Origin: Alphaproteobacteria bacterium
Lineage (GTDB): Bacteria > Pseudomonadota > Alphaproteobacteria > UBA6615
Length of the DNA stretch: 64,000 nucleotides
Direction of reading: 5' to 3'
NCBI GenBank assembly: GCA_050246875.1
Contig: JBFWVF010000012.1
Location: 11,375-75,374, forward strand
Positions 3,149-61,724 of the stretch are shown here, piece after piece; within the stretch, counting starts at the first letter, position 1, and each line of letters starts with the position of its first letter. The notes under the pieces were generated by a model. That model worked only from the letters and a program-made list of their open reading frames with translations. It was not told where the DNA came from and made no database searches. The position numbers and the translations under genes are program-made.

Positions 3149-3781
3149 TCAGCCCTGGCCGGCAGGCCCGAGCGCCCGCAGGACGTAGGGCAGGATGCGC
3201 GCGACGATCACGGCGACTCCATCGGCGTTGGGGTGAATGCCGTCGGCCTGGTTGAGCCGCGGCTCCGCGGCGACCCCCTCGAGGAAGAAGGGATAGAACA
3301 CGACGCCGTGACGCGCGGCAAGGCGGGGGAAGACGGCATCGAAGGCCGTCGCGTAGTCCGGTCCGAGGTTGGGCGGTGCGCGCATGCCGGTCAGCAGCAC
3401 CGGCACGCCGCGCGCCTTCAACGCCGTCAGGATGGCATCGAGGTTGGCCTCGGTCTGGCGCGGATCGAGGCCGCGCAGGCCGTCGTTGGCGCCCAGTTCG
3501 ACGATGGCGAGGGCGGCGCCGTCATGGCCGGCGAAAGTCCAGTCCAGCCGTGCCCGCCCGCCCGCCGTGGTATCGCCCGACACCCCGCCGTCGACCACGC
3601 GCGCCGCCACGCCCCGCGCGGCGAGCGCGGCCTCGAGCTGGCGCACGAAGGCCTTGTCGGCGGGCAGCCCCCAGCCGGCAACGAGGCTGTCGCCGAAGGC
3701 GACGATGGTCCGGCCGTCGGCCGCATCGGCGGACGGCGCGCGGAACAGGGAGAGGACCGCCAGCAGGACGACCGCGAGCAT
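3149..3781 (-). CDS. GDSL arylesterase / acyl-CoA thioesterase I (TesA-like); start approximate
   Basis: FGDSL, GVSGDTTAGG, ELGAND, DGIHPN blocks; signal-peptide-like N-terminus; divergent from ybbA/ybbP-like pair. Confidence 0.9.
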   Translation of the reverse strand: MLAVVLLAVLSLFRAPSADAADGRTIVAFGDSLVAGWGLPADKAFVRQLEAALAARGVAARVVDGGVSGDTTAGGRARLDWTFAGHDGAALAIVELGANDGLRGLDPRQTEANLDAILTALKARGVPVLLTGMRAPPNLGPDYATAFDAVFPRLAARHGVVFYPFFLEGVAAEPRLNQADGIHPNADGVAVIVARILPYVLRALGPAGQG

Positions 3782-3956
3782 GCGGCGCACGCCACACTTT
3801 AGCCGCATCGATGCGCTGCCGTGGCGTGCATGGACCGCGTCGTTCCCGCCCGTGGCTGACATCGCCGATCGCTCCCTTCCGCCGGAAGCCGCGTTGACAC
3901 CGCCCGTCGAGGGCCCATATGGGCGGGGCACCCCCGCCCTCGCCGGAGATACCCGC

Positions 3957-4667
3957 ATGGCGTCGCCTTCCTCGCCCACGGCCGCGCCGGACGACAGGAT
4001 CGTGCGGCTCGCCGGGGTCAGGCTCGATCTCGCAGGTCCGGCGGGACCGGTCAACGTGCTGCGCGGCATCGACCTCGACGTGCGCGCCGGCGAACGGCTG
4101 GCGATCGTCGGGCCTTCGGGTTCCGGCAAGACGACCCTCCTGATGGTGATGGCAGGACTGGAACGCGCGAGCACCGGCGACGTCGTCGTCGCCGGGGCCG
4201 ATTTCGCCGGCCTCGACGAGGACGCGATGGCGCTGCTGCGTCGCGGCCGCATCGGCATCGTCTTCCAGTCCTTCCATCTCGTGCCGACGATGTCGGCGCT
4301 GGAGAACGTCGCCGTGCCGCTCGAACTCGCCGGCCGCCGCGACGCCTTCGCCCGCGCGGCCGAGTGCCTCGGCATGGTCGGCCTCGCCGGCCGCACCGGC
4401 CACTATCCCGGCCAGCTATCGGGCGGCGAGCAGCAGCGCGTCGCGGTGGCCCGTGCCTTCGCGTCGCAGCCGGCCCTGCTGCTGGCCGACGAGCCGACCG
4501 GCAACCTCGACCGCGCCACCGGCGATCTCGTCATGGACACACTGTTCGCGCTGGCGAAGGCGCACGATACCACGCTTGTCCTCGTCACGCATGACGAGGC
4601 GGTCGCGGCGCGCTGCGACCGCACGGTTCACATCGCCGACGGCCTCATCCGGCGGGCGGCGGCGTGA
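3957..4667 (+). CDS. ABC transporter ATP-binding protein (YbbA-like)
   Basis: Walker [28 protein letters not shown]; ATG 3957 after GGAG. Confidence 0.92.
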
Positions 4668-7210
4668 GCGGGCTCGCCGACTGGGCGCTGGCCGCGCGCC
4701 TCGCCCGGCGCGAGCTGCGCGGCGGCGTGCGCGGCTTCCGCCTGCTGGTCGCCTGCCTCGGTCTCGGTGTCGCCGCCATCACCGCCGTCGGCACGCTCGA
4801 CGCGATGCTGGTGGCCGGCCTGCGCGACGAGGCCCGTACTATCCTCGGCGGCGACGTCGCCGTCCGCCAGATCCACCAGCCTCCCGAGCCGGCGGTGCGC
4901 GACCTGCTCGCCGACGGCGGCACGGTCTCGGCGACGCGCGAACTGCGCGCCATGGCCCATGCCGGCGACGGCGCCCGCACGCTGGTCGAGATGAAGGCGG
5001 TCGACGCGGCATGGCCGCTCTACGGCACCCTGGTGACGGCACCGGCCCTGCCGCGCGACGGCCTGCTGGCGCCCCGCGCGGCCGGCGACGGCGCCACGCT
5101 CTGGGGCGCCGCCATCGAGCCGGCCCTCGCCGACAAGCTCGCCGCCGGCATCGGCGACCGGCTGACCGTCGGCGCCGCGACGTTCGAAGTCCGCGCCCTC
5201 ATCGAGCGCGAACCCGACCGGCTCGGCGGCGGCACCTTCCGCCTCGGCCCGCGCCTGCTGGCCAGCGCCGAGGCCCTCGACGCCACCGGCCTGATCCAGC
5301 CCGGCAGCCTCGTCTCGCACAGCCTGCGGGTGCGCCTGCCGCCGGGCAGCGACGCGGCGGCGCTGGCCGCGCGCCTCGACGACGGCTGGCCCGACGCGCC
5401 ATGGCGCGTGCGGACCCCCGACGAAGCCTCGCCCGGCGTGACGCGGCTGGTCGGGCGCCTGTCGCTGTTCCTCGGGCTGGTCGGCCTCACCGCGCTCCTC
5501 ATCGGCGGCGTCGGCGTCGCCAACGCCGTGACGGCGCACCTCGCGCGCAAGCCGGCGACGATCGCCACGCTGAAGTGCCTCGGCGCGCCGGCGACCCTGG
5601 TGTTCCGCGTCTACCTGCTGGAGACGCTGGCGATCGCCGGCCTCGGCCTCGCGCTCGGCCTCGTGCTCGGCGTCGGGGTGGCGCTCGCCGCGAGCCTGCT
5701 GCTGGGCGATCTGCTGCCGGTGGCGATCGACCCTGCCCTGCTGCCATGGCCCGTGCTGCGCGCCGCGGTCTTCGGCCTGCTGACCGCGCTCGCCTTCGCC
5801 ATCGTGCCGGTGGCGCGCGCGGCGCGGCTGTCGCCGGCGCTGCTGTTCCGCGCCGCCGCCGTGCCGCCCGCCGGGATGCCGCCGCGGGCCTATCTGGCAG
5901 CCGCGGCGCTGTGCGCCGCCGGACTCGCCGCGCTCGCCATCGTCGCAGCGCCGGATGCGCGCTTCGCCGCCTTCTTCGTCGCCGGAGCCGCCGCCGCCTT
6001 CCTCGTCCTGCGCCTCGCCGCCGTCGGCGTGGCGGCGCTCGCCCGGCGCTGGTCGCCGTCCGAGCGGCCGCTGCTGCGGCTCGGCATCGCCGCGCTCTAC
6101 CGCCCCGGCGCGGCAACAGCGCCGGTCATCGTCTCGCTCGGCCTCGGCCTCGCCGTGCTGGTCGCGGTGGTCACCGTCGAGGGCAACCTCGCGCGCCAGT
6201 TCCGCGAGGAATTGCCCGAGACGGCGCCGGCCTTCTTCTTCCTCGACATCCAGCCCGACCAGCTCGTGCGCTTTCGCACCATCGTCGCCGGCACGCCGGG
6301 AACGGGCGCGGTCGAGGACGTGCCGATGCTGCGCGGCCGCATCGTCGAACTGAACGGGCGGCCGGCGGGCGAGGTGGAGATATCGCCCGACGCGCGCTGG
6401 GCGCTCGACGGCGACCGCGGCATCACCTGGGCGGCGACGGCGCCGGAGAACTCGCCCGTGGTCGAAGGCACATGGTGGCCGGCGGACTACAGCGGCCCGC
6501 CGCTGGTCAGCGTCGAGGCCAACATCGCGCGCGGCCTCGGCCTCGGCGTCGGCGACACGCTGGCGGTCAACGTGCTCGGCCGCACCGTGCAGGCGCGGGT
6601 AGCAAGCCTGCGGAAGGTCGAGTGGAACAGCCTCGCCATCAATTTCGTGATGATCTTCTCGCCCGGCCCGCTCGACGGCGCGCCGCGCATGCACGTGGCG
6701 ATCGTCCATGCTGCGCCGGCGGCCGAGTCGCCGCTGGAACGGGCGGTGACGGACGCCTTCGCCAACATCAGCGCCGTGCGGGTGCGCGAGGCACTGGAGG
6801 AAGCGACGGCGCTTGCCGGACAGGTGGCGACGGGCGTGCGGGCCGCCGCCGCGACGGCACTGGTGGCCGGGACGCTGGTTCTCGCCGGCGCGCTGGCGGC
6901 AGGCGAACGGCGGCGGCTGGCCGACGGCGCCGTGCTCAAGGTGCTGGGCGCCCGCCGGCGCGACGTGCTGGCGGCATGGCTCGCCGAACTCGCCCTACTG
7001 GCGCTGGCTGCGGCGATCGTCGCCGGCATCGCCGGCACGCTGGCCGGCTGGGCGGTGACGACGCAGGTGCTGCGGCTGCCATGGACACTGCTGCCGGGCA
7101 CCGTGCTCGCCACGCTCGCCATCGCCGTGCTGGCGACCGTGGCGCTCGGCCTCGCCGGCACGTGGCGGGCCCTCGGTGCCCCCGCCGCGCCCCTGCTGCG
7201 CGAGCCCTGA
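4664..7210 (+). CDS. ABC transporter permease (YbbP/FtsX-like)
   Basis: 848 aa, two FtsX-like hydrophobic halves, ARRELRGG start, overlaps ATPase stop. Confidence 0.9.
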   Translation: MSGLADWALAARLARRELRGGVRGFRLLVACLGLGVAAITAVGTLDAMLVAGLRDEARTILGGDVAVRQIHQPPEPAVRDLLADGGTVSATRELRAMAHAGDGARTLVEMKAVDAAWPLYGTLVTAPALPRDGLLAPRAAGDGATLWGAAIEPALADKLAAGIGDRLTVGAATFEVRALIEREPDRLGGGTFRLGPRLLASAEALDATGLIQPGSLVSHSLRVRLPPGSDAAALAARLDDGWPDAPWRVRTPDEASPGVTRLVGRLSLFLGLVGLTALLIGGVGVANAVTAHLARKPATIATLKCLGAPATLVFRVYLLETLAIAGLGLALGLVLGVGVALAASLLLGDLLPVAIDPALLPWPVLRAAVFGLLTALAFAIVPVARAARLSPALLFRAAAVPPAGMPPRAYLAAAALCAAGLAALAIVAAPDARFAAFFVAGAAAAFLVLRLAAVGVAALARRWSPSERPLLRLGIAALYRPGAATAPVIVSLGLGLAVLVAVVTVEGNLARQFREELPETAPAFFFLDIQPDQLVRFRTIVAGTPGTGAVEDVPMLRGRIVELNGRPAGEVEISPDARWALDGDRGITWAATAPENSPVVEGTWWPADYSGPPLVSVEANIARGLGLGVGDTLAVNVLGRTVQARVASLRKVEWNSLAINFVMIFSPGPLDGAPRMHVAIVHAAPAAESPLERAVTDAFANISAVRVREALEEATALAGQVATGVRAAAATALVAGTLVLAGALAAGERRRLADGAVLKVLGARRRDVLAAWLAELALLALAAAIVAGIAGTLAGWAVTTQVLRLPWTLLPGTVLATLAIAVLATVALGLAGTWRALGAPAAPLLREP

Positions 7211-48642: not shown

Positions 48643-48871
48643 GCGACGCTCCGTTCAATTATTGAAAAGTATATGGATAGATTAGTAAAATGGTGCGAAA
48701 TCAAAGTATTTTCAACCACCAAGACCAAATAAATATCTCGTTCAATTTTTCTGGATTCTCCTGACAATGAAGCGCCCGGACTGGCGCGGCCTGCTCGTGC
48801 CACGGTTGTGCCGCGCGCCCCTGTCATCCTCTAGACTGCCGGCCAACAAGAGCGCGGGGAGGCTGGGTGTC

Positions 48872-51196
48872 ATGGGTGAGTTTTCGGTCGGCCAGCCGGT
48901 GCCGCGGCGCGAGGACTCACGCCTGCTACGCGGCCAGGGTCGTTACCTCGACGACATGGACCTGCCGCGCCAGACCTGGATGGCGGTGGTGCGCTCGCCG
49001 CACGCGCACGCGGCGATCCGCGCGATCGATACGCACGCCGCGCAGGCGTCGCCCGGCGTGCTGGCGGTGCTGACCGGCGACGACTACACGGCGGACGGAC
49101 TCGGCTCGCTACCCTCGATGGCCGCCTACAAGCGCCGCGACGGACGGCCGATGTTCGTGCCGTTCCGCCCCGCCGTCGCCGTCGGACGCGCACGCGTCGT
49201 CGGCCAGCCGGTCGCCGTGGTGGTGGCGCGCACGCCGGAGCAGGCGCGCGACGCCGCCGAACTGGTCGACGTGGACTACGCCGGACTGCCGGCCGTCGTC
49301 TCCGCCTTCGACGCGGCGCAGCCCGGCGCGCCGGTGCTGCACGACGACTGCCCGGGCAACGAATCCTACTACTACGAGGCCGGCGACAAGGCCGCCGTCG
49401 ATCATGCGTTTGCCAGTGCCGCGCATGTCGTCGAGCAGCGTCTCGTCATCAACCGCATCACGGCGAACGCCATGGAGCCGCGCGGCGCCATCGGCGACTG
49501 GGACGAAGGGACCGGGCGCTACACGCTCTACACCGGCTTCCAGCGGCCGTGGCTGTTCCGCAACGCCATCGCCGAGACGACACTGAAGATTCCCGAGACG
49601 AAGCTGCGCCTCGTCACCGGCGATATCGGCGGCAGCTTCGGCCTGCGCGGCTCGGTCTATCCCGAGCTGATCCTCGTCCTGTGGGCAGCGCGGCGCGTCG
49701 GCCGTCCGGTCAAGTGGATTGCCACGCGCAGCGAGAGCCATATCAGCGACGACGATGCCCGCGACAACATCGTCGACGCGGCGCTGGCGCTCGACGCGGC
49801 CGGCAATTTCCTCGCCGTGCGCATCCGCAGCTGGGCCAATCTCGGCGCCTATGTGTCGTTCCGCGGCGCGCTGCCGCCGGTGGTCAACATCGGCTCGGTC
49901 GCCGGCACCTACACGACGAAGGCGATCCACGTCGCCATCTCCGGCATGCTGACCAACACCCACTGCACCTCGCCCTACCGCGGCGCCGGGCGGCCCGAGG
50001 CGGCCTACATGATCGAGCGGCTGGTCGACCTCGCGGCGCGCCGGCTCGGCCGCGACCCGGCCGACCTGCGGCGGCAGAACACCGTTCCCGCCAGCGCCAT
50101 GCCTTACAGGACGCCGCTGACCTACACCTGGGACAGCGGCCACTTCGACGCCAACCTCGAAAAGGCGCTGGCGCTGGCCGACTGGGCCGGCTTCCCTGCC
50201 CGCCGAGCCGAGGCGGCAGGGCGCGGCGTGCTGCGCGGCATCGGCGTGACCAACACCATCGAGCAGGCAGCGGACGCCACCATCGAGACGGCCGAGCTGC
50301 GCTTCGATGCCGGCGGCGACGCGACGCTGGTCACCGGCTCGGTGCATCACGGCCAGGGCCACTACACGGTGCACAGCCAGATTCTCCACGACCGGCTCGG
50401 CATCGATCCGGCACGGCTGGCCTTCATCCAGGGCGACACCGACAAGGTCGCCTTCGGCATGGGCACCGGCGGTTCTCGCTCCTCCGCGATGAGCGGCGGC
50501 GCGCTGGTGATGGTCGCCGGCAAGGTGATAGAGAAGGGACGGCGCATCGCCGCGCACCTGCTGGAGGCGGCGGAGGCCGACATCGCCTTCGAGGGCGGCC
50601 GCTTCATGGTCGCCGGCACGGACCGCGGCGTCGACGTGCACGAGGTGGCGCGCGCCGCCTTCAACCCGGCGAAGCTGCCCAAGGGCATGGAGCCGGGCCT
50701 CTACGAGACGGCGACGTACAAGGCCGAGGCCGGCAACTTCCCCAATGGCTGCCATGTCTGCGAGATCGAGGTCGATCCCGACACCGGCGTCGCGCGGCTC
50801 GCCAGCTACGTCGTCGTCGACGATGTCGGCACGGTGCTCAACCCGCTGCTGTTGGAGGGCCAGATCCACGGCGCGCTGGCGCAGGGCATCGGCCAGGTGC
50901 TGATGGAGGACAAGACCTACGATGCCGCGACGGGCCAGGTGCTGGCCGGCTCGTTCATGGACTACGCCATGCCGCGCGCCGCAGACCTGTGCGACGTGAC
51001 GGTGGTCTCGAACCCGGCGCCGACGCCGACCAACCCGCTCGGCGTCAAGGGCGCCGGCGAGGCAGGCACGGTCGGCGCCCTCCCCGCCGTGACGCTGGCC
51101 ATCCTCGACGCGCTGGCGCCGCTCGGCGTGACGCATATCGACACGCCGGCGACCTCGGAGCGCATCTGGCAGGCGATGCGGCAGGCGCGGAAGTGA
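48872..51196 (+). CDS. Xanthine dehydrogenase family large subunit (CoxL form II-like)
   Basis: RREDSRLLRG.G.Y.DD, DIGGSFG, PYRGAGRPEA, GQGH, NPLGVKGAGEAG. Confidence 0.92.
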   Translation: MGEFSVGQPVPRREDSRLLRGQGRYLDDMDLPRQTWMAVVRSPHAHAAIRAIDTHAAQASPGVLAVLTGDDYTADGLGSLPSMAAYKRRDGRPMFVPFRPAVAVGRARVVGQPVAVVVARTPEQARDAAELVDVDYAGLPAVVSAFDAAQPGAPVLHDDCPGNESYYYEAGDKAAVDHAFASAAHVVEQRLVINRITANAMEPRGAIGDWDEGTGRYTLYTGFQRPWLFRNAIAETTLKIPETKLRLVTGDIGGSFGLRGSVYPELILVLWAARRVGRPVKWIATRSESHISDDDARDNIVDAALALDAAGNFLAVRIRSWANLGAYVSFRGALPPVVNIGSVAGTYTTKAIHVAISGMLTNTHCTSPYRGAGRPEAAYMIERLVDLAARRLGRDPADLRRQNTVPASAMPYRTPLTYTWDSGHFDANLEKALALADWAGFPARRAEAAGRGVLRGIGVTNTIEQAADATIETAELRFDAGGDATLVTGSVHHGQGHYTVHSQILHDRLGIDPARLAFIQGDTDKVAFGMGTGGSRSSAMSGGALVMVAGKVIEKGRRIAAHLLEAAEADIAFEGGRFMVAGTDRGVDVHEVARAAFNPAKLPKGMEPGLYETATYKAEAGNFPNGCHVCEIEVDPDTGVARLASYVVVDDVGTVLNPLLLEGQIHGALAQGIGQVLMEDKTYDAATGQVLAGSFMDYAMPRAADLCDVTVVSNPAPTPTNPLGVKGAGEAGTVGALPAVTLAILDALAPLGVTHIDTPATSERIWQAMRQARK

Positions 51197-51373
51197 CTGT
51201 ACCGCCTCATTGGAAAAGAGCGGCGCTGCCCCGGCATCGCTACAAAGAGGGATTCAGAATTGCGGAAGAGACATCAAGTGGCCAGTGGCGTGTCGAATGC
51301 TATTATTGGGGATATATCTTCTGGTTCCAGAAAGAATCCGACGCTATAGCGTTTCTGTTACGGGATTATCCCC

Positions 51374-51402
51374 TTGAAGCACGTACGATGGTTCCCTATA
51401 TT
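51374..51402 (+). promoter_or_regulatory. Transposase promoter overlapping IRL
   Basis: TTGAAG-17 nt-TATATT, 23 nt upstream of the transposase ATG. Confidence 0.6.
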
Positions 51403-51425
51403 GAGGGTGTCGAAGGGAACCGATC

Positions 51426-52304
51426 ATGTCCGACAAACTCACAGTCCGCGACTACTTCAAGCGTTTCCCTGATGAGGACGCTTGCCTCCTGCATGTGATG
51501 GAAGTCCGCTACGGGCTCCGTCACGTCTGCGGCCACTGTGGGAAGGACGCGACCTTTCATCGGCTGGCGAAGCGCAAGGCGTTCTCCTGCGCGGCCTGTG
51601 GCGCGCACGTCTACCCGTGCGCCGGGACGGTTTTCGAGGATAGCCGGACCCCGCTGCAACTCTGGTTCTATGCCATCTACCTGTTCGTCACGACGCGCCA
51701 CGGTGTCAGCGGCAAGGAACTGCAGCGTCAGCTTGGCGTGACGTACAAGACGGCTTGGCGGATGGGCCACCAAATCCGCGACCTGATGAACAAGGCCGAT
51801 GGCTTCGCCATGCTGCGCGGCCACGTCGAACTTGATGAGGCGTATGTCGGCGGCCGGCGCAGCGGTGGCAAGCGCGGGCGCGGCGCGCCGGGCAAGACCA
51901 TCGTATTCGGCATGGTCGAGCGTGGCGGCCGGATGGCGGCGGAAGTGATCCCGAACATCAAGAAGTCGACGCTTCGCGAGGCGACGCTTCGCAACGTCGA
52001 GCCCGGCTCGCTGGTGTCGACCGATGAACTGATGAGTTACGGCTTACTGGACGGCGACGGCTACAAGCACGGCACGGTCGCGCACGGCCAGAAGGACTAT
52101 GCCCATTACGACTATCGCCACGACGCGGTGCACCACGTCAACAGCGTCGAGTCGTTCTGGCGGGTGTTCAAGCAGTCGGTAACGTCGACACATATCCATG
52201 TGTCGGAGCGGCACATGAACCGTTATCTCAACGAGTTCGCTTTCCGCTCAAATCATCGGGCGATGCAGAACGCGATGTTCGATCTTCTGATCGGCGCTGT
52301 CTGA
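51426..52304 (+). CDS. IS1595 family (ISXO2-like) DDE transposase
   Basis: Zn ribbon CGHC..CAAC, GVSGKELQRQLGVTYKTAWRM HTH, ELDEAYVGG, STDE, NSVESFW, YLNEFAFR. Confidence 0.95.
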   Translation: MSDKLTVRDYFKRFPDEDACLLHVMEVRYGLRHVCGHCGKDATFHRLAKRKAFSCAACGAHVYPCAGTVFEDSRTPLQLWFYAIYLFVTTRHGVSGKELQRQLGVTYKTAWRMGHQIRDLMNKADGFAMLRGHVELDEAYVGGRRSGGKRGRGAPGKTIVFGMVERGGRMAAEVIPNIKKSTLREATLRNVEPGSLVSTDELMSYGLLDGDGYKHGTVAHGQKDYAHYDYRHDAVHHVNSVESFWRVFKQSVTSTHIHVSERHMNRYLNEFAFRSNHRAMQNAMFDLLIGAV

Positions 52305-52431
52305 TCAATCGGCCCAATGCGGCATCAAGGTCGGCGCTATCCGCCGGCCCGACGCCGCGGGCCTCCTCCTGCGCAACAAACTCCGCTATGCGCCCTTCTT
52401 TGATGGCTTGGGCGAGCGTTAACATTCTCAC
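52228..52431 (-). CDS. Small hypothetical passenger protein (67 aa)
   Basis: GTGA overlap with the vapD stop; MLTLAQAIKEGRIAEFVAQEEARG; overlaps the transposase 3' end in antisense. Confidence 0.55.
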   Translation of the reverse strand: MRMLTLAQAIKEGRIAEFVAQEEARGVGPADSADLDAALGRLIRQRRSEDRTSRSASPDDLSGKRTR

Positions 52432-52754
52432 TCAGCGGCAGCGCTGGGCGCCAGCGGCAGCACATAATCGCCAACGGCCGGCATCAGATCGTTGTTGTCC
52501 TCGATCCGCAGCATCCGAATGTCGGTAACACAGGTGCGGAACCAAGGGTGCTTCGCCACAAGCGCTTGAACTGCAAGCACACACTTCACGGCGTCGATCT
52601 TGTCCGAGCTGGCAAAGTAGACGCTTCCCTGTTGGCGCTCAAAGCCGTGCTCTTCAAGAACGCGTCGAATGTCCTCATAGGCATTGCGCCCGTAGCTACC
52701 AGGGTGGTGCTTGTCGAGAAGTTCGGTATCCAGGTCAAAGACGATGGCGTGCAT
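52428..52754 (-). CDS. vapD: Virulence-associated protein D (VapD, Cas2-like endoribonuclease)
   Basis: MHAIVFDLDT..L, AYEDIRRVL..HGF..QQGSVY, PWF..CVTDIRMLRIEDNNDLMP; GGAG SD. Confidence 0.88.
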   Translation of the reverse strand: MHAIVFDLDTELLDKHHPGSYGRNAYEDIRRVLEEHGFERQQGSVYFASSDKIDAVKCVLAVQALVAKHPWFRTCVTDIRMLRIEDNNDLMPAVGDYVLPLAPSAAAE

Positions 52755-53145
52755 GCGCCGGCTCCATTGCATGGAGTTGGGTAGGTGCGAGCCGGTGCAT
52801 TCAACGGGGACGGGCGCTAGGGCTGACGACGATGTGTTTGCCGGCGAGCCGGTCAACACACGAAATTTCCGCCGGGTCTTGTGCCTCATGAAGGCAAAAT
52901 GAGTCCGGCCGCGCGGCGGTGTCAACGAGAAAACACCGCACCGCACAATGATCTGGCCTAGCCTGTCCGGGTTGGTTATCATGCGTCCCGGCGGAGGAGA
53001 CGCCGCCCCGACGCTCGAAAGAGCATCAGGGCGGCGGCCCCGATCAGCCTAACAAGGCTGGCGGTATGTTACGAACCATGGCCTCGCCTCCTTTCGTCAG
53101 GGCTCTGTGCGCGTGGCAGTTCTCAGGCTGGTTCACGCGACACAC

Positions 53146-53679
53146 TCAGGATGCTGAAGCGGCGGACGATTCGTGGTCGTCCGCCGTTTCGTTTCCTCCC
53201 GTCTGATTCCCGCTAGGCTCCGCGTCTAGCTGCACACCGGCAGCGACGGCTCCTGTTGGGGTAACTCGAAACCGTCCGGGCATTGTACGCTCGACTAGGC
53301 CCTGCTCGCTGTAAATATGCATTTGCGAGCGGATGGTTGTTTTCTGTGTCTGAGTTCCGTACTGAGCGCACAGCCTCTCAATATCTGACAACGAAAAGTC
53401 GCGCGGGTATCGGGCCGACATGGCCGCGATGACAGATTTCCATAGCTCGGACAAGCCTCTACGACGATCCGAGCCGGCGCTAGATGGCGCAGGCTCAGGT
53501 TGCACAACGGGCTCCTGATCCGCGCCAAGGAGGACTTTCGTTGCTTCCTCGAAGCCGCGCAGTTCGGCCTCTAGGGTTTCAACGCGCTTCTGCGCAGCAA
53601 TGACCGAACGACGCGCCGATTCGACCGCGCGCCGCTTGGCTTCTAGCTGCTGTTGAAGGCTGGTGGGCAGGTTCGTCAT
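53146..53679 (-). CDS. Hypothetical passenger protein (N-terminal coiled coil, C-terminal winged-helix-like); start uncertain
   Basis: Heptad-rich LQQQLEAKRR...LEAELRGFEEA; FSLSDIERL...TIRSQMHIYSEQGLVER..PGRFRVT. Confidence 0.6.
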   Translation of the reverse strand: MTNLPTSLQQQLEAKRRAVESARRSVIAAQKRVETLEAELRGFEEATKVLLGADQEPVVQPEPAPSSAGSDRRRGLSELWKSVIAAMSARYPRDFSLSDIERLCAQYGTQTQKTTIRSQMHIYSEQGLVERTMPGRFRVTPTGAVAAGVQLDAEPSGNQTGGNETADDHESSAASAS

Positions 53680-54086
53680 GCGACGGACTCTGGCAGAGTC
53701 CATCGGCAAATACAACGGTACAACGCACGGGAATTTTGTCCCAAAACGGGGCGTTAAACGGCGTTGTTAAATCAAACGCCCGATGGATCGGACGGCGCTT
53801 ATATCGAAACTGTCGATATAACCATCAAACTGTTGGGGCTTAAGGGCCGAATCGCGGTCCCGTGCGTCAAGGGGATAATCCCGTTCTGTTAAGAATGGAC
53901 CTCTGAAACTTACAGAAAATCCGAAGGTCAATCGTCTACTGAAGTTATGAGCGCCCGTTCGACTGCCTGCGGGTCGCGCTCCATCACGCGGAGCAGAATG
54001 CGCGCTGCGACATCGGCACACGCCTGCCCTGCTCCCAGCCGTGTCCCAGCCGTGGAAAGGCTTACACATAGATCATAGAATTGAAA

Positions 54087-54716
54087 CTAACTATTATGTT
54101 CCGCGAATAGCTTGTCAAAAATATCGTCGGCCCCCCACGCTTGTGCGGAAGTGAAGGCCAATCGTCTTTTCTGATCGTCATCCAGAGATTCCACTCCCGA
54201 CTTATAGCCGATATCGTGCTCTGCCTCAGACCAAGCGTGCTGAAATAAAGTCTTTATCTGGAGCTCAAAAAAACTTGGGACCGATTTTCGATCAATCTTC
54301 CTGTCTATTACGTCGTTTGGTAAAATCAATATATGATGATAACCAAAATAGCCAAACTTCCAAACTGACTCAGGTATATGGCGCCTGTGCTCTATCGTGC
54401 GAAAATATTTCTTTATAATTTTATCAATCCTAACGACATCTGAAAGATAAAAAGTTACGATTCGGCATCCTATTTGATCCTGAATCTCATTGAATGGATC
54501 GATGTACTTTCGCTTACCATCTTCCTCCTTCATCGCCTTGGCGACAAAACTTTCTACACCTTTAGATCGCGATGAAACACGATCTATTCTAGGACAGCCA
54601 ACTAAAAAGCTTTCAATATGCTGTCGCAGCGCCTCAGCAATTGGCATTAAAGCAGATTCGCGCCTTCTCCTGTATTCACCCTCGATGTATTCAGCGCTGA
54701 GACTTGAGTTTATCAT
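54087..54716 (-). CDS. RelA/SpoT synthetase-domain protein (small alarmone synthetase-like)
   Basis: RSKGVESFVAK, DQIGCRI, GYFGYH, ELQIKTLFQHAWSEAEHDIGYK; no HD/TGS/ACT domains; AT-rich. Confidence 0.88.
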   Translation of the reverse strand: MINSSLSAEYIEGEYRRRRESALMPIAEALRQHIESFLVGCPRIDRVSSRSKGVESFVAKAMKEEDGKRKYIDPFNEIQDQIGCRIVTFYLSDVVRIDKIIKKYFRTIEHRRHIPESVWKFGYFGYHHILILPNDVIDRKIDRKSVPSFFELQIKTLFQHAWSEAEHDIGYKSGVESLDDDQKRRLAFTSAQAWGADDIFDKLFAEHNS

Positions 54717-55707
54717 CTATAACTTTTCCCTTCGTGGTATATACGACATTTTTCTTTGATCCATCCTCGTATTTCTTATCAAATATTTTTTCAAACTCTG
54801 ACGCCTTGGCCGTCATAAGCGCGCCGTTGTCTAGTTCGACTGACCTATACGCAACGAAATTTCCGAACTCTGCGACATCCAATTGGAAAACCTCGTTGGC
54901 GATTTCTGGATTTTTTAACTCACTAATCAGGGCACCCCTCGCTTCCTTGGAAAGATTAAACCGCTCCGCAAATCCAATAATACTTATGCTCTGTCCGCCC
55001 AACCCTCTCGCCAACCTGCTTGCGGCGATGAGTTCTTCTTTCACTTCCATAGGAGCTTTCTTCACCGCGTCACGTAGTGCGATTCCTAGCCGACGGGAGC
55101 CAGCCGCAGCTGTCGTCACAAACTCGGACATTAAAAAATTTCTTATCCAATAATCGGACAGGTGGTCGTTTCCGTTGCTAATCTGCCTATCGACGGCTTT
55201 GCCTCGCCAAAAGCCACGCTTAAGTGATGAATCATTGTAAAGAGCCGCCTTATAGGAAGTTTTATTTTTCATGAAAACCCGCTCAAGGAACTCCACAGTA
55301 AACTCTGTCGATTTTTCGTCAACGAGGATTGCACTATCAGTAGGAAAGCGAGATATCACTATTTTATGTTGATCAGCCTCCCTCCCTGAGATCAGAAAAA
55401 GCAACCCCAATCCAGATCGACGGTCGGTCATATCTTGCAGACGCTCAGCGATAGTTTGAGCTGATGGAATACTTAGGTCGCTCAGATATTTAACAAGGAG
55501 GGACCGAAACTCGTTTTTCTGCTCCCCTTCTGAGGTCGGACGAAAATTTATGTGGATATCGCATTCCTCTTCAGATCTCTCGTAAATGCCATTTAACAGT
55601 TTGAATAGATTACCAGACAGCGGAACAGCCGTTCCGCTGACAGCGATCTTTTCCCGCCGAGCTTTTCCCGGGCTTACAAGGAATGCGTGAATTTGTTGGA
55701 TTGGCAA
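54691..55707 (-). CDS. Hypothetical protein (338 aa), overlapping and upstream of the RelA/SpoT gene
   Basis: Long uninterrupted ORF in AT-rich DNA, TTG start, 26-nt overlap with the synthetase gene. Confidence 0.8.
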   Translation of the reverse strand: MPIQQIHAFLVSPGKARREKIAVSGTAVPLSGNLFKLLNGIYERSEEECDIHINFRPTSEGEQKNEFRSLLVKYLSDLSIPSAQTIAERLQDMTDRRSGLGLLFLISGREADQHKIVISRFPTDSAILVDEKSTEFTVEFLERVFMKNKTSYKAALYNDSSLKRGFWRGKAVDRQISNGNDHLSDYWIRNFLMSEFVTTAAAGSRRLGIALRDAVKKAPMEVKEELIAASRLARGLGGQSISIIGFAERFNLSKEARGALISELKNPEIANEVFQLDVAEFGNFVAYRSVELDNGALMTAKASEFEKIFDKKYEDGSKKNVVYTTKGKVIDDKLKSQR

Positions 55708-55802
55708 TTCGGCGCCCCCCGCGCTTAATTACGCATACTGCTACCTATCCGTGCAAGTAGAAGATATTTCAGCTCCGCCTAAAGATTAGGGCCGCTTTGG
55801 CG

Positions 55803-56474: not shown

Positions 56475-58400
56475 CTATCCGGCAACCTCCGGCTGTTGCG
56501 CGGCGGCGAGCAGAGAGGACGCCGGGCGCAGCAGGCGCCTTCCCTCGCCTTCGCGGCGGGTCATGCCGACGCGGTCGAGATACTCGAGAATCTCGACCGA
56601 GAGATTGCGGCCGATGCCCAGTTCGTCGCGGAAATTCGTCGGCTGCAGATTGCCTGCGCGTGCCAGCCGCTCCGCCGTCCGCGCCCATTGCGCGGCGGTT
56701 TCCGTCGGCGCGAAGCGGTTGCGGCCGATGCGCACGACGAGGCCGAGACGCTCGGCACGGCGCAGCACCGACATGACACGCTCGGGCTGCGCGCGCAGCA
56801 GCTTGGCGATCTCGTTGGCGACCGGCGGCGCGTTGCCGGCGGCCTCGAACAGCGGCTCGATGTCGCGCCACAGCGCGGCGTCGGCGGCCTGCAACGCCGG
56901 CCTGTGCGTCGGAAGACGCCACCACGGCCCGGTCGCGTCGACCTTGTTCTCGCCCCGCAACGCGTCGAGCACCGCCGCGACGACGGCCGGGCCGGCGGGA
57001 CCGCCGGCGGTGCGCCGCAGCGTGCCGGCATCCGGCCCGAGACGATCCGGCTGGCCCTTGTGGGCCATCGCCAGTGCCGCCAGCAGGCGGGTGCCGAGAT
57101 CCTGCCAGTGGCGCGGCGCCAGCGCCACGCCGCCGGCCCGTTGCATCGGCACGCTGGCCATCAGGGCGTCGCGCGCGGCGCCATCGAGATTGCGCGCCAG
57201 GAAGAAGCGATCGAGGTCGACGCCGCCGGGCGTGGCATCGAGCAGGCCCGCGAGCGCCGTCGCGGGATCGCCTTCGGCCAATGCCGCCAGCGCCGCCAGA
57301 CGGTCGCTGCGCGCCCGACCGCGCGGCGGCGGGAACGGATCGACGATGCGCCCGCCGGCCAGCGTCTGCCGCCCAGACTGGTCGCGCAGCACGAAGCGGT
57401 CGCCGGCGAGCAGCCCGGCCGGACGGTCGAGCGCCAGGCGCACCAGCCCTTCGCCGCCGGGCGCGAGGCTCGGCCCGCCCAGCACCCAGGCGCGCGCCGG
57501 AATGTCGCCGGCGCCATGATGCAGGTGGACGGGCGTGCCGTCGGCGAAGACGCGCGTCGCGTCAGCCGGCACGCGGGCCAGCACGTCGGCGCGGTCGGTC
57601 GGCGCGTGCAGGTCGGCGGCGACGAGCCAGTCGCCGCGCGTGATGCCGGCCTTCTCGAGCCCGGCGGCGACGATGTTGACGGCGCAGCGGTCGCCCGCCT
57701 GGCCGCTCTCGGCCTTGCGGTCCTGCACGTGCAGGCCGCGCACCCGCACCTCGATGCCGGCGGGGCTCAGCATCAGGCGATCGCCGACGGCGACGCGCCC
57801 CGAATAGGCCGTGCCGGTGACGACGAGGCCGGCGCCGGCGAGCGTGAAGGCGCGGTCGATCGACAGGCGGAAGCCACCGCGGGCGGAACGTGACGGCAGC
57901 GCTGCCGCCGTGGCCGCAAGATGCGCGGAGAGTTCCGGAATGCCGTCGCCGGCGATGGCCGATACCGGGAAGACCGGCGATCCGGCCAGCGCGGTCGGCG
58001 CCAGCATGTCCTCGATCTGCCCCCTCACCTCGGCGACGCGCTCGGGCGGCACGCGGTCGATCTTGGTCAGCGCGACGACGCCGCGCGAGATGCCGAGCAG
58101 GTCGATGATGCCGAGATGCTCGCGCGTCTGCGGCATCGGCCCGTCGTCGGCGGCGACGATCAGCAGCACCGTATCGACGCCGGCGACACCGGCGACCATG
58201 GCGCGCACGAAGCGCTCGTGGCCGGGCACATCGACGATGCCGAGCACCGTGCCGTCGGGCAGCGCCGTGTAGGCGAAGCCGAGATCGATGGTCATGCCGC
58301 GCCGCTTCTCCTCCGGCAGGCGGTCGGCGTCGACGCCGGTCAGGGCACGCACCAGAGCGGTCTTGCCGTGGTCGATATGGCCGGCGGTGGCGATGATCAT
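56475..58400 (-). CDS. selB: Selenocysteine-specific translation elongation factor
   Basis: [41 protein letters not shown]-terminal [20 protein letters not shown]. Confidence 0.96.
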
Positions 58401-59809
58401 GCCGGCGCATCCAGCGCGGCGAGGGTGGCGAGGAAGCCGGCCTCGTCTTCGAGCACGCGCAGGTCGAGCAGCAGCGCGCCATCGGCGATGCGGCCGATCA
58501 CCGGCGCCGGCAGGCCGCGCAGCGCCGCCGCCAGGCGGTCGAGCGCGCGCCCGCCGCCCTTGGCGGACGCCGGGCGGATGGCCAGAGCGGCGCTCGGCAA
58601 AGCCTCGACCGGCAGCGCGCCGGAGCCGATCTGGCTCGCGCAGGGCACCACCGCCACCGTCCAGTCGCGCCCCAGGCGCGCCTGCACGCGCGGCGCCAGG
58701 CGCTCGGCGGCAGCGCGGATGTCGGCCTGCGGCCGCGCCAACAGGCGCAGCGCCGGCAGGCGGGCGGCGAGGCGGTCGGGATCGCGGTAGAGCGCGAGCA
58801 CGGCGGCCAGCGCGGCGATGGTCAGCTTGCCGAGACGCAGCGAGCGCTTGAGCGGGTTCTTCGCCAGCCGCGCCATCAGGTCCTTGCGGCCGACGACGAG
58901 GCCGGCCTGCGGCCCGCCGAGCAGCTTGTCGCCACTGAAGGTGACGAGGTCGGCGCCGGCCTTCAGCGTGTCCGTCACCGTCGGTTCCGGCGGCAGGCCC
59001 CAGCGGGCGAGATCGACGAGGCTGCCCGAGCCGAGGTCCGAGGCGAAGGGAATGCCGTGCTTGCGCGCGATGCCGGCGAGGGTCACCTCATCGACCGACG
59101 CCGTGAAGCCCTCGATGCGGTAGTTGCTGGTGTGGACCTTGAGCAGCAGCGCCGTCTTCGGGCCGATCGCGCTCTCGTAGTCGCGTGCATGGGTGCGGTT
59201 CGTCGTGCCGACCTCGACCAGCCTGGCGCCAGCCCGCGCCATGATGTCGGGCAGCCGGAAAGCACCACCGATCTCGATCAGCTCGCCGCGCGAGACCACG
59301 ACCTCCTTGCCGCGCGCCAGCGTATTGAGCAGCAGCAGCAGGGCGGCGGCGTTGTTGTTGACGGCGACGGTCGCTTCGGCCCCGGTCAGTTCGCGCAGCA
59401 GGTCGGCGATGTGATCGTCGCGTTCGCCGCGCTTGCCGCTGGCGAGGTCGAATTCGAGGTTGGCGGCGCCGCGCGCGACGGCGGCGATGGCCGCCACCGC
59501 CTCCTCGGGCAGCGGCGCGCGGCCGAGATTGGTGTGCAGCACTGTGCCGGTGAGGTTGAACACCGGCCGCAGCGACGGCACGGCGGCGCGGGCCAGCGCG
59601 GCCGCCGCGCGCGCCGCGATGGCGTCATCGCCGGCCACGGCCGCCTCGCCCGCCGCCACGGCACGGCGCAAGGCGGCGAGCTCGGCGCGCAGCGCCGTGG
59701 TCACCGGCACGCGGCCGTGCTCGGCGACCAGCGCCGCCACCGCCGGCAGGGCGAGCAGGCGGTCGACGGACGGGATGGCGGCGTATGCCGTGCGCTCGCT
59801 GTCGGGCAT
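58397..59809 (-). CDS. selA: L-seryl-tRNA(Sec) selenium transferase
   Basis: [58 protein letters not shown]. Confidence 0.96.
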
Positions 59810-59817
59810 GTCCGGGA

Positions 59818-60951
59818 TCAGCCGAAGCGGATGACCTGGCGGATGGCGGCGCCATCGGCCAGACGGTCGAAGCCGGCATTGATGTCGTCGAGGCGGATGT
59901 AGTCGCTGAGCACCCGCTCCACCGGCAGCCGGCCGGCCTCGTTCAGCGCGATGTAGCGCGGGATGTCGCGCGCCGGCACGCAGCTGCCCATGTAGCTGCC
60001 CTTGAGCGTCCGTTCCTCGCCGACCAGCGAGACCTGCTGCACGGAGACCTTGCGGTCGGGATGGGCGAGCCCGGCGGTCACCGTGGTGCCGCCCCGCGCC
60101 GTGACGGCATAGGCGAGTTCGACCGCGGGCGCCGCACCGGCCGTCTCCACCGCCACGTCGACGCCGCCGCCCGTCGCCGCCTTCACCTGTTCGACGACAT
60201 CGGTGGCGCGCGCGTCGAAGGCGGCCGTCGCGCCGAGCTGGCGCGCCAGTTCGAGCTTGCGCGGATCGAGGTCGAGCGCCACCACCTGCGACGCGCCGGC
60301 GGCGAGCCCGCCGAGCAGCGCGTTGAGGCCGACGCCGCCCATGCCGACGACGGCGAGCTTCTGCCCGGCCTTCAGCCCGCCGGTATTGAGCGCCGCCCCG
60401 ACGCCGGTGATGACGGCGCAGCCGAACAGCGCCGCCTTGTCGAGCGGCAGGCGCTTGTGGACCTTGACCAGCGAGCGGCGCGAGACGACACAACGCTCGG
60501 CGAAGCAGGAGACGCCGACGAGGTGATTGACCGGCTTGCCGTTCCACGACAGGCGACGCGCGCCGGTGATCAGCGTGCCGGCGACATTGGCCTTCGCCGC
60601 CGCCGTACACAGGGCCGGCCGGCCCTCCATGCAGGGCACGCAGGCGCCACAGCCGGGCACGAAGACCATGACGACGTGGTCGCCCGGCGCCAGGTCGTCT
60701 GGCCCGATACCCGTGCCGACCGCCTCGACGACGCCGGCGCCCTCGTGGCCCAGCACCATCGGCACGGGACGCGGCCGGTTGCCGTCGATGGCCGAGAGGT
60801 CGGAATGGCAGAGGCCGGCCGCCTCGACGCGCACCAGCACCTCGCCCGGCCCCGGCGCCTCGAGATCGAGTTCGACCAATTCCAGCGGACGGCTCTCGGC
60901 GTAGGGGCGCTTGCGGCCCATTTCCACCAGCACGGCGGCGCGCGTCTTCAT
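59818..60951 (-). CDS. Zinc-dependent alcohol dehydrogenase
   Basis: GLCHSD, GHEGAG, CGAC..C...[17 protein letters not shown]. Confidence 0.92.
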
Positions 60952-61064
60952 GCTTCCTCTCCCGATCACGGGGCGGCGATTGTCCGGCACGGGCGGCGGG
61001 GCCGCAAGGCCGCCCCTGGCGACGGCGGTTATACTGGCGCGGCACAGCTGGCGGGAGAACTGTC

Positions 61065-61724
61065 GTGGCGAGCATCGACGCCAACCCCTACCCGTTCGAT
61101 TTCCGGCCGGAAACGGTCGCCCTGCTGGCCATCGACATGCAGCGCGACTATGTGCTGCCGGGCGGCTACGGCGCATCGCTGGGGCTCGACGTCGCGCCTT
61201 GCCAAGCGATCGTGCCCGCCGTGGTGTCGCTGGTCGACCTGTTCCGCGCCCGCGGCCTGCCGGTCATCCACACCCGCCAAACGCACAGGCCCGACCTTTC
61301 CGATTGCCCGCCGGCCAAGCTGCGCCGGGGCAACCCGAAGCTGCGCATCGGCGATCCCGGGCCGATGGGCCGGCTGCTCATCCGCGGCGAGTACGGCAGC
61401 GACTTCATCGACGAACTGCAGCCGTTGCCCAGCGAAGCCGTCATCGACAAGCCGGGCAAGGGTGCGTTCTACGCCACAGGCCTGCACGACACGCTCAGGC
61501 AGTTCGGCACGGAACAGCTGATCGTCTGCGGCGTCACGACCGAGGTCTGCGTGCAGTCGACCATCCGCGAGGCCAACGATCGCGGCTACGACTGCCTGCT
61601 CGTCGAGGACTGCACGGCGAGCTACTATCCGCAGTTCCGGCAGGCGACGATCGAGATGATCCGTTCGTCCAACGCGCTGATCGGCTGGACCGCACCGCTG
61701 GCGAAGGTTGCGGCGGCGCTGTAG
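61065..61724 (+). CDS. Cysteine hydrolase, isochorismatase family (biuret hydrolase-like)
   Basis: [36 protein letters not shown]. Confidence 0.88.

Follow-up and report, generated by a model that had tools for sequence, protein, structure and literature searches.

An IS1595-family transporter insertion sequence with a VapD-like nuclease gene among its cargo, and the probable constant backbone of its clade

Which genes of a transporter insertion sequence belong to the vehicle and which to its load? The question is raised by a 2,523-bp element (51361-53883) in a stretch of 64,000 nucleotides of contig JBFWVF010000012.1 (assembly GCA_050246875.1, positions 11,375 to 75,374, forward strand) from an alphaproteobacterium of the lineage UBA6615; the whole stretch is called the window below. 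Besides a transposase gene, the element holds open reading frames (ORFs) for a 67-amino-acid (aa) protein, a VapD-like nuclease and a 189-aa protein. An earlier description, made from the letters alone (the sequence-only reading), took all three for passengers of an intact IS1595-family element and suggested that one of the neighbours of vapD might encode a novel antitoxin. We conclude that the element is in all probability an intact transporter insertion sequence (tIS) of the IS1595 family and belongs to a mostly alphaproteobacterial clade in which a fixed backbone is combined with an exchangeable cargo bay. The 67-aa ORF is assigned to the backbone, which changes the view of what accompanies VapD.

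The ends of the element were read directly from the sequence. The terminal inverted repeat on the transposase side (IRL, 51361-51383, + strand) is 23 nt long, CGGGATTATCCCCTTGAAGCACG, and its cargo-side counterpart (IRR, 53861-53883, - strand) matches it at 22 of 23 positions. Immediately outside lie two identical copies of an 8-bp target-site duplication, TTCTGTTA, at 51353-51360 and 53884-53891, so the order across 51353-53891 is TTCTGTTA / CGGGATTATCCCCTTGAAGCACG ... CGTGCGTCAAGGGGATAATCCCG / TTCTGTTA. A repeat search returned the IRL/IRR pair as the longest inverted repeat within 51000-54300. With up to three mismatches allowed, the repeat pattern occurs only at these two sites of the window, and none of 100 shuffled sequences gave two or more matches. 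Pairing extends to the neighbouring bases, A at 51360 and T at 53884, so that formally the repeat could be 24 nt long and the duplication shorter. We favour the 23-nt repeat with the 8-bp duplication because that arrangement is seen in 41 of 56 related elements (described below), where the repeat begins 6 nt (7 nt in one, L049) before a TATCCCC core and a perfect 8-bp duplication lies beside it. IRL itself contains the clade-wide core TATCCCCTTGA(C/A), which is kept in the related elements. The boundaries given by the sequence-only reading could thus be retained without change.

The element has a G+C content of 60.4% against 70.1% for the window, and the spacer around it, of 50-55% G+C, is bounded by a molybdopterin-enzyme gene (48767-51196) on one side and on the other by a low-G+C island, which is followed by selB and selA. 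The perfect duplication and the lower G+C content are compatible with a recent arrival, as the sequence-only reading had proposed. Near-identical copies were not found in the plasmid collection by megablast; a single syntenic relative was. Disruption of a gene by the insertion was considered and rejected: the modelled empty site has only short stop-to-stop frames (at most 95 codons) across the junction, and the one tested had no family match. An RNA element inside the insertion sequence was likewise discarded, the single Rfam match being sub-threshold (Xoo2, 20.4 bits vs 45).

The transposase gene (51426-52304, + strand) encodes 292 aa with a zinc ribbon, a helix-turn-helix (HTH)-like region and a DDE domain. 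The protein matches the IS1595-type DDE model PF12762 over its full length (profile positions 1-153 of 153, E 8.7e-42), the N-terminal zinc ribbon PF12760 (2.7e-10, 40.5 bits, cutoff 25.4) and the NCBIfam IS1595 model NF033547 (3.2e-61, 206.9 bits, cutoff 75). An alignment of 40 transposases of the clade has no variation at C35, C38, C55, C58, D137, E242 and K249 and hardly any at D200, and all of these residues are present here. Their spacing and the definition of the family make D137, D200, E242 and K249 candidate catalytic residues, which would form the DD(E)K motif of IS1595, that is a DD(N/E/H) triad with a lysine seven residues after its third member. The element thus combines the DDE domain and zinc ribbon with terminal repeats and an 8-bp duplication, which are the marks of the IS1595 family, and the description of its transposase as intact holds. 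The promoter that the sequence-only reading assigned to this gene is less certain. A consensus-type match, TTGAAG-17-TATATT, does lie upstream of it (51374-51402, + strand), and its -35 box is inside IRL, in the repeat core TTGAC that nearly all relatives keep; one such match was found against a mean of 0.9 in shuffled sequences, and the site is therefore a lead only.

The TnCentral preprint describes a transporter insertion sequence as an IS-like unit whose repeats enclose passenger genes with no part in transposition, and confines such elements to the families IS1595 and IS66; the text of ISsaga cites Siguier et al. 2009 for them. The VapD-like and 189-aa ORFs of our element lie inside its repeats. 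Like other IS1595 transporters, it combines a single DDE transposase, whose N-terminal part is a zinc ribbon, with short terminal repeats, 8-bp duplications and passengers inside the repeats. Its ends, CGGGATTAT ('ggnnatTAT'), together with the 1.8-5.3 kb size of its clade, would presumably place it with the passenger-carrying ISNwi1 subgroup of ISfinder (entries ISNwi1 and 'ISNwi1+'). The closest transposases that we have seen are those of L019 (78% identity; the handle denotes one of the loci surveyed below) and of plasmid CP122394.1 (72-73%), and relative to these the element merits a name of its own. Judged against these relatives it is new within the established tIS category; the sequence-only reading had already thought it probably new, and no transposase above 78% identity has come to our notice.

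The syntenic relative lies on plasmid p1 of Geminicoccaceae bacterium SCSIO 64248 (CP122394.1, 106116-108642) and measures 2,527 bp, as compared to 2,523 bp here. Its ends are the repeats GGGGATTATCCCCTTGACGCA, and the target duplication GCACGCAA is perfect. Identity to our element is 73% for the transposase, 54% over 41 aa for the small ORF and 54% for VapD. The ORF beside its cargo-side repeat (198 aa) has no detectable relation to the 189-aa protein (BLASTP E 0.16; hhalign 3.6%). The database record names only an IS1595 family transposase and hypothetical proteins.

The small ORF proved most informative about the construction of these elements. It occupies 52228-52431 (- strand), starting either at GTG 52431 (67 aa) or at ATG 52425 (65 aa); it is convergent to the transposase gene, whose end is overlapped by its last 77 nt, and its GTG start overlaps the VapD stop codon (GTGA). 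Its 44 homologues, none of them named, share the motif F-x-A-Q-E-E-A-R-G-V-G-P. The protein belongs to no family in Pfam, NCBIfam, PADLOC or PHROGs, a profile search against solved structures gave no relative, and the stored Atlas model of a homologue is of poor quality. Coding character was assessed in 79 distinct sequences on the 37 codons that the transposase gene does not overlap. Stops are absent from this frame in all of them, compared with 36-156 in the other five frames. The ratio of nonsynonymous to synonymous differences (pN/pS) is 0.45 with synonymous sites saturated, and diversity is 0.65 at the third codon position vs 0.39 at the first and 0.28 at the second. By these coding statistics, the small ORF is a real gene. 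Its conserved C-terminal RTSRS is antisense to the nearly invariant NAMFDL of the transposase, and conservation of this part may be a by-product of constraint on the transposase.

A profile built from the 44 homologues was used to scan genomes, one per species, and the best 80 of 110 matches were analysed as loci. Most of them are in Alphaproteobacteria. A related transposase gene, convergent with the small ORF and overlapping it, is present in 76 of the 80 loci (none in L056, L072, L078 and L081), and VapD in only three (L038, L043, L050). Both repeat cores were found in 56 loci. The repeat arms of 53 of these elements are identical at 19 or more of 26 positions, the exceptions being L056, L064 and L076. 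With these three set aside, the elements are 1.84 to 5.34 kb long and every one has cargo; the apparent 1.3-kb length of L076 comes with a poor repeat match (11/26), and a better pair gives 1,989 bp. Perfect 8-bp duplications, with a mean A+T content of 77%, accompany 41 of the 56 elements, and all five VapD-bearing elements have one. Several relatives, for example L014, L030, L032, L033 and L036, have frameshifted or truncated transposase genes. Two elements of one chromosome (OZ245780.1, a Methyloligellaceae metagenome-assembled genome), L067 and L069 (3623-6053 in each), are identical at 2,431 of 2,431 positions; they lie about 2.4 Mb apart, have unrelated flanks and carry different duplications, TTCGGAAA and TTCGGCAA. 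Identical copies at two sites show that such cargo-bearing elements move as units.

The border between backbone and cargo was examined in eight pairs of elements with close transposases and different cargo. In all eight, homology extends from the start of the small ORF (or from a point up to about 155 nt inside it) to the transposase-side repeat, a shared block of 966-1,089 nt with 78-87% identity; at the other end only about 25 nt are shared. Before the start codon of the small ORF the alignment columns carry about zero information, and a conserved recombination site at the junction of cargo and backbone, which we had considered, was rejected on that ground. Within the sampled elements these alignments show a backbone composed of IRL, the transposase gene and the convergent gene of about 65 aa, with only the 23-26-bp IRR at the far end, and a cargo bay, between IRR and the start codon of the small gene, that varies from element to element. 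On this comparative evidence the small ORF is a constant backbone gene of the insertion sequence clade and not a passenger, so that two of the three passengers named in the sequence-only reading, VapD and the 189-aa protein, are left as such. Two of the surveyed contigs carry labels from outside Alphaproteobacteria. The transposase of L053 (labelled Candidatus Hadarchaeota archaeon) is 75% identical to that of the window and the one of L003 (a Gemmatimonadota contig) about 70%, which suggests either misbinning or wide transfer.

What, then, is transported? The VapD-like gene can be modelled as 108 aa from ATG 52754 (52428-52754, - strand). From its first start codon the ORF spans 52428-52982 (- strand, 184 aa), and the VapD domain begins at ATG 52754, which is preceded by GGAG at a distance of 7 nt. 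The protein matches NF041506 with E 2.9e-17 and 62.8 bits (below the curated equivalog cutoff of 100), the Pfam Cas2 family PF09827 with 4.4e-6 and, among solved structures, the VapDs of Xylella (5dyr, 4.8e-15), H. pylori (3ui3, 3.9e-12) and H. influenzae (6zn8, 2e-8). The alignments to the solved proteins begin at residue 1, i.e. at ATG 52754. Homologues number 2,100, many of them named VapD by their sources, and the nearest among those listed are 72-74% identical. By these matches the protein appears to be a divergent member of the VapD family and not an equivalog, and the claim that a VapD/Cas2-like nuclease homologue travels in the element is borne out. All 26 aligned sequences have the aspartate of A-I-x-F-D-L (D7 in the 108-aa model), and nearly all have the serine of QGSV (Q-G-S). 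The two motifs coincide with their counterparts in the alignments to 3ui3 and 6zn8, and Gilep et al. 2025 (PMC11980593) describe this aspartate and serine as catalytic.

The frame is open upstream of 52754, and an alternative model of 153 aa starts at ATG 52889, with a possible N-terminal extension of 45 codons (52755-52889, - strand; MRHKTRRKFRV...HLPNSMQWSRR). Homologue calls and alignment give it some substance: an extension of 25-60 aa is called in 46 of 120 listed VapD homologues (those of at least 125 aa), and the aligned extensions share a start like MRHK..R..LRV and the pattern Y-[IL]-x-N...W-x-R-R just before the domain. G+C at the third codon position of the region is 0.76. TTGACA is found 30 nt before ATG 52889, both here and in L038; this spacing would fit a leaderless transcript, which we treat as a lead only. 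The extension may be real, or the region may be conserved regulatory DNA.

In the same paper, about half of the VapD homologues are reported without an associated partner, and the known antitoxins are VapX or VapY, with an SH3 fold, and VapW, an inactive VapD homologue. Next to our VapD no gene resembling vapX, vapY or vapW is recognisable, as judged for VapX and VapY from their published description. A Pfam scan revealed no second Cas2/VapD-like ORF in the element, as a partner of VapW type would be, and the 87-aa ORF that precedes vapD on plasmid JX194161.1 has no match in it. Because no known antitoxin type is recognisable and about half of the VapDs are partnerless by that account (PMC11980593), we infer that the VapD of this element is of the stand-alone type, without a dedicated antitoxin in the element. 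By sequence it resembles the VapDs of the VapXD, VapYD and VapWD systems in its Cas2-like fold family, in the aspartate of FDL and in the serine of QGS; it differs from them in its residence inside an insertion sequence and in the possible 45-aa extension.

The second passenger (53146-53715, - strand) encodes 189 aa from TTG 53715, or 177 aa from ATG 53679 in the version of the gene caller. It has no family in Pfam, NCBIfam, PADLOC or PHROGs; a full HMMER scan gave 321 representative homologues, 68 of them at E <=1e-10. Weak winged-helix matches occur among 70 members of this family (HVO_A0261_N in 11, PaaX in 5, Mrr_N in 4). The Atlas model (predicted local distance difference test, pLDDT, 0.65) resembles winged-helix proteins only at template modelling (TM) scores of 0.35-0.49, and the family profile has a marginal match to the HTH of StbA (7pc1, E 0.0013) among solved structures. 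A coiled coil with a winged-helix-like part is thus a supported lead for this protein and not a fold assignment, and the winged-helix label of the sequence-only reading can be kept in that sense. Between IRR and the ORF there is a perfect 9-bp palindrome, TTATATCGA-N5-TCGATATAA (53799-53821), a candidate operator. It is not conserved in relatives, and a role as operator for the winged-helix-like protein is possible, as a lead only.

Members of the 189-aa family were recognised in the clade by BLASTP in L022 and L024 and by hidden Markov model (HMM) in L043 (6e-17); hhalign adds a cluster of eight loci (97.4%), L074 (92%) and the C-terminal part of an ORF of L038 (91.7%). The family was not detected by hhalign in L001 (3.6%) or L050 (0.4%). 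At least 11 elements (L013, L022, L024, L060, L062, L065, L067, L069, L073, L074, L077) have a member of the family but no VapD. Counting the cargo ORFs of at least 50 aa kept by the script, it stands alone in L024, L062, L065, L073, L074 and L077. On this distribution the family is therefore a recurrent cargo in its own right and not a dedicated partner of VapD.

The distribution also bears on the possible antitoxins. One might regard the 67-aa ORF as a downstream, translationally coupled VapD antitoxin, as the overlap of its start with the VapD stop invites, all the more since the start lies -26 to +3 nt from that stop in the four other VapD-bearing elements. The same coupling, however, is shown to whichever cargo gene precedes, including unrelated and by themselves complete pairs (PIN/DUF433, TacA/GNAT, RmrA-like/DUF4411), VapD is missing from 77 of the 80 loci with the small ORF, and the ORF lies within the DNA block that stays constant when the cargo changes. 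Because of its linkage to the transposase in 76 of the 80 loci, its company with VapD in three, and this shared block, we assign it to the backbone; as an antitoxin specific for VapD it was rejected on distribution and homology breakpoints, such a function is very unlikely on comparative grounds, and we give it hardly any credence. The 189-aa protein and VapD could instead form a two-gene toxin-antitoxin module, in which the upstream protein binds VapD, represses the promoter, or does both. Many antitoxins have a DNA-binding domain; the 189-aa ORF is upstream of VapD on the same strand, an ORF of 170-222 aa holds this position in all five VapD-bearing elements, and in three of them (the window, L043 with E 6e-17, and L038; hhalign 98.5% and 91.7%) it belongs to the 189-aa family. 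Yet the two ORFs are separated by 391 nt that include a strong hairpin, unlike tight type II operons; the family is sole cargo, or stands beside genes other than vapD, in the 11 or more elements just listed; and it is replaced by unrelated proteins in L001 and L050. The protein is also unlike VapX, VapY and VapW as PMC11980593 describes them, a comparison made with the descriptions. We consider such a module unlikely, so that of the proposed novel antitoxins one is dismissed and the other weakened. The hairpin itself (52996-53041, - strand), G+C-rich and without a U tract, has a 20-bp stem and a folding energy of -53.8 kcal/mol (z -6.9), which 0 of 200 shuffled sequences equalled.

A different objection concerns the whole element, which might be a recently immobilised relic, with a non-functional transposase or end and decaying cargo. 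The single copy in the window, the mismatch between the repeats and the damaged transposase genes of several relatives would agree with that. On the other side, the transposase ORF of our element is uninterrupted, spans the family models end to end and has every clade-invariant residue, the target duplication is perfect, and all cargo ORFs are open; a relic seems quite improbable to us. The reading as an intact transporter with a fixed backbone and an exchangeable bay has weak points of its own. Only one copy is present in the window, so activity in this genome is deduced and not seen. The small ORF served as bait in the survey, which puts it into every locus by construction, and relatives without it or without cargo would have been missed. 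Neither a mechanism of cargo exchange nor a conserved site at the junction was found. The VapD score remains below the curated NCBIfam value of 100. The position of the 189-aa family upstream of VapD in three of five elements leaves room for a functional link. Any role of the small protein, which lacks a family, a solved relative and a good stored model, is conjectural.

The cargo of the clade is diverse. Pfam was run on 130 cargo ORFs of the 56 elements and PADLOC on 74 of these ORFs. A recognisable class is present in 17 of the 56 elements, and the others are without family; NCBIfam named none of 28 representative unknown cargo ORFs. The recognisable classes comprise PIN_10/DUF5615 with DUF433/MerR (L006, L015, L018, L046, L051), an HTH-peptidase M78 (PADLOC RmrA, 5.5e-23 in L031) with DUF4411 (L031, L048, L063), HTH_3 with DUF6941 (L032, L034), TacA with a GNAT acetyltransferase (L045), a Schlafen/HATPase_c_4 protein (L004 and L057; PADLOC 'pAgo' model, 8e-52 in L057), DUF2283 (L025) and VapD (L038, L043, L050). 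When the 12 cargo classes are mapped onto a tree of 60 transposases, 34 changes are required (minimum 11, shuffled mean 37.9), and VapD needs five changes for its five rows. The nearest transposase to that of the window, L019, comes with a different two-gene cargo. By the tree, cargo classes are scattered across the transposases and cargo is interchangeable.

The cargo met with most frequently consists of two unknown proteins, of about 170 and about 255 aa, coupled to the small ORF. It was seen in L017, L019, L020, L028, L061, L068, L075 and L079 (~3700-5000), and also in L064 and L070. Neither protein falls into a Pfam or NCBIfam family; in L017 the 251-aa member of the pair matches the PADLOC candidate PDC-M24B (3.4e-8). 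Two elements are nested. L051 (781-6118, 5,340 bp) resembles the PIN/DUF433 element L015 and is interrupted by a transposase gene of the IS66 family, and the cargo bay of L012 (1993-6061) contains a second IS1595 transposase as fragments.

A possible course of events can be outlined from the family and the relatives. The DDE transposase would bind both repeats and move the entire 2.5 kb as a unit. Its transposition would duplicate 8 bp of a target that is mostly A+T-rich, and the present copy came to lie in the spacer of 50-55% G+C beside the low-G+C island. VapD, with the catalytic aspartate and serine positions kept, would probably act as a nuclease whose expression is held low; its benefit may lie in defence of the host or in retention of the element. 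The small protein could be an accessory of transposition or a regulator. Alternatively, cargo transcripts that read through the small gene, and are thus antisense to the transposase mRNA at its 3' end, could damp transposition; both ideas are speculative. If they are carried one step further, the clade appears as a dedicated shuttle for toxin-antitoxin and anti-phage genes, with an undescribed 65-aa protein, swapping of cargo at the start codon of the small gene and at the 25-bp repeat, coupling of cargo expression to transposition control by the small protein or by antisense transcription, and stand-alone VapD as one nuclease payload among many. We put this forward tentatively, and doubt that it will hold in full.

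Transporter insertion sequences are the smallest known vehicles that move genes unrelated to transposition, and they have hardly been surveyed. Here the same 1.1-kb backbone carries at least 12 different cassettes, many of them similar to toxin-antitoxin or defence genes and many without a family. The cargo bay of the clade is thus a cheap source of candidates for new defence or toxin-antitoxin genes, and the small protein may be a new accessory protein of insertion sequences, an idea open to test. A caution follows for annotation as well: an adjacent small ORF should not be called an antitoxin before its distribution has been checked. In full-text literature, supplements and ISfinder aside, we found neither VapD, toxin-antitoxin or defence cargo on IS1595 elements nor the convergent small gene, and the words 'transpos' and 'mobile' do not occur in the main text of Gilep et al. 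2025 (PMC11980593). The picture of the clade, with its fixed backbone, small gene and diverse cargo bay, may be new relative to that literature.

Some genes in the surroundings of the element deserve mention. At a distance of 195 bp from the insertion sequence lies the low-G+C island (window 54000-55750), with 40-47% G+C in a genome of 70%. A tRNA as anchor of this island was looked for within 51-57 kb, and none was present. One of its genes encodes a 209-aa RelA/SpoT-domain protein (54087-54716, - strand; PF04607 2.7e-14, PADLOC candidate PDC-S33 6e-9), and the first 26 nt of this gene are shared with the end of an ORF of 338 aa without family (54691-55707, - strand). Judged by domain content and arrangement, the two look like a toxin or defence pair of the small-alarmone-synthetase type. 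Farther downstream, the selA ORF (58397-61084, - strand) is 895 aa long and has SelA domains only from residue 434 onward; its listed 5' end probably lies too far upstream, or else the SelA part is fused to an unannotated one.

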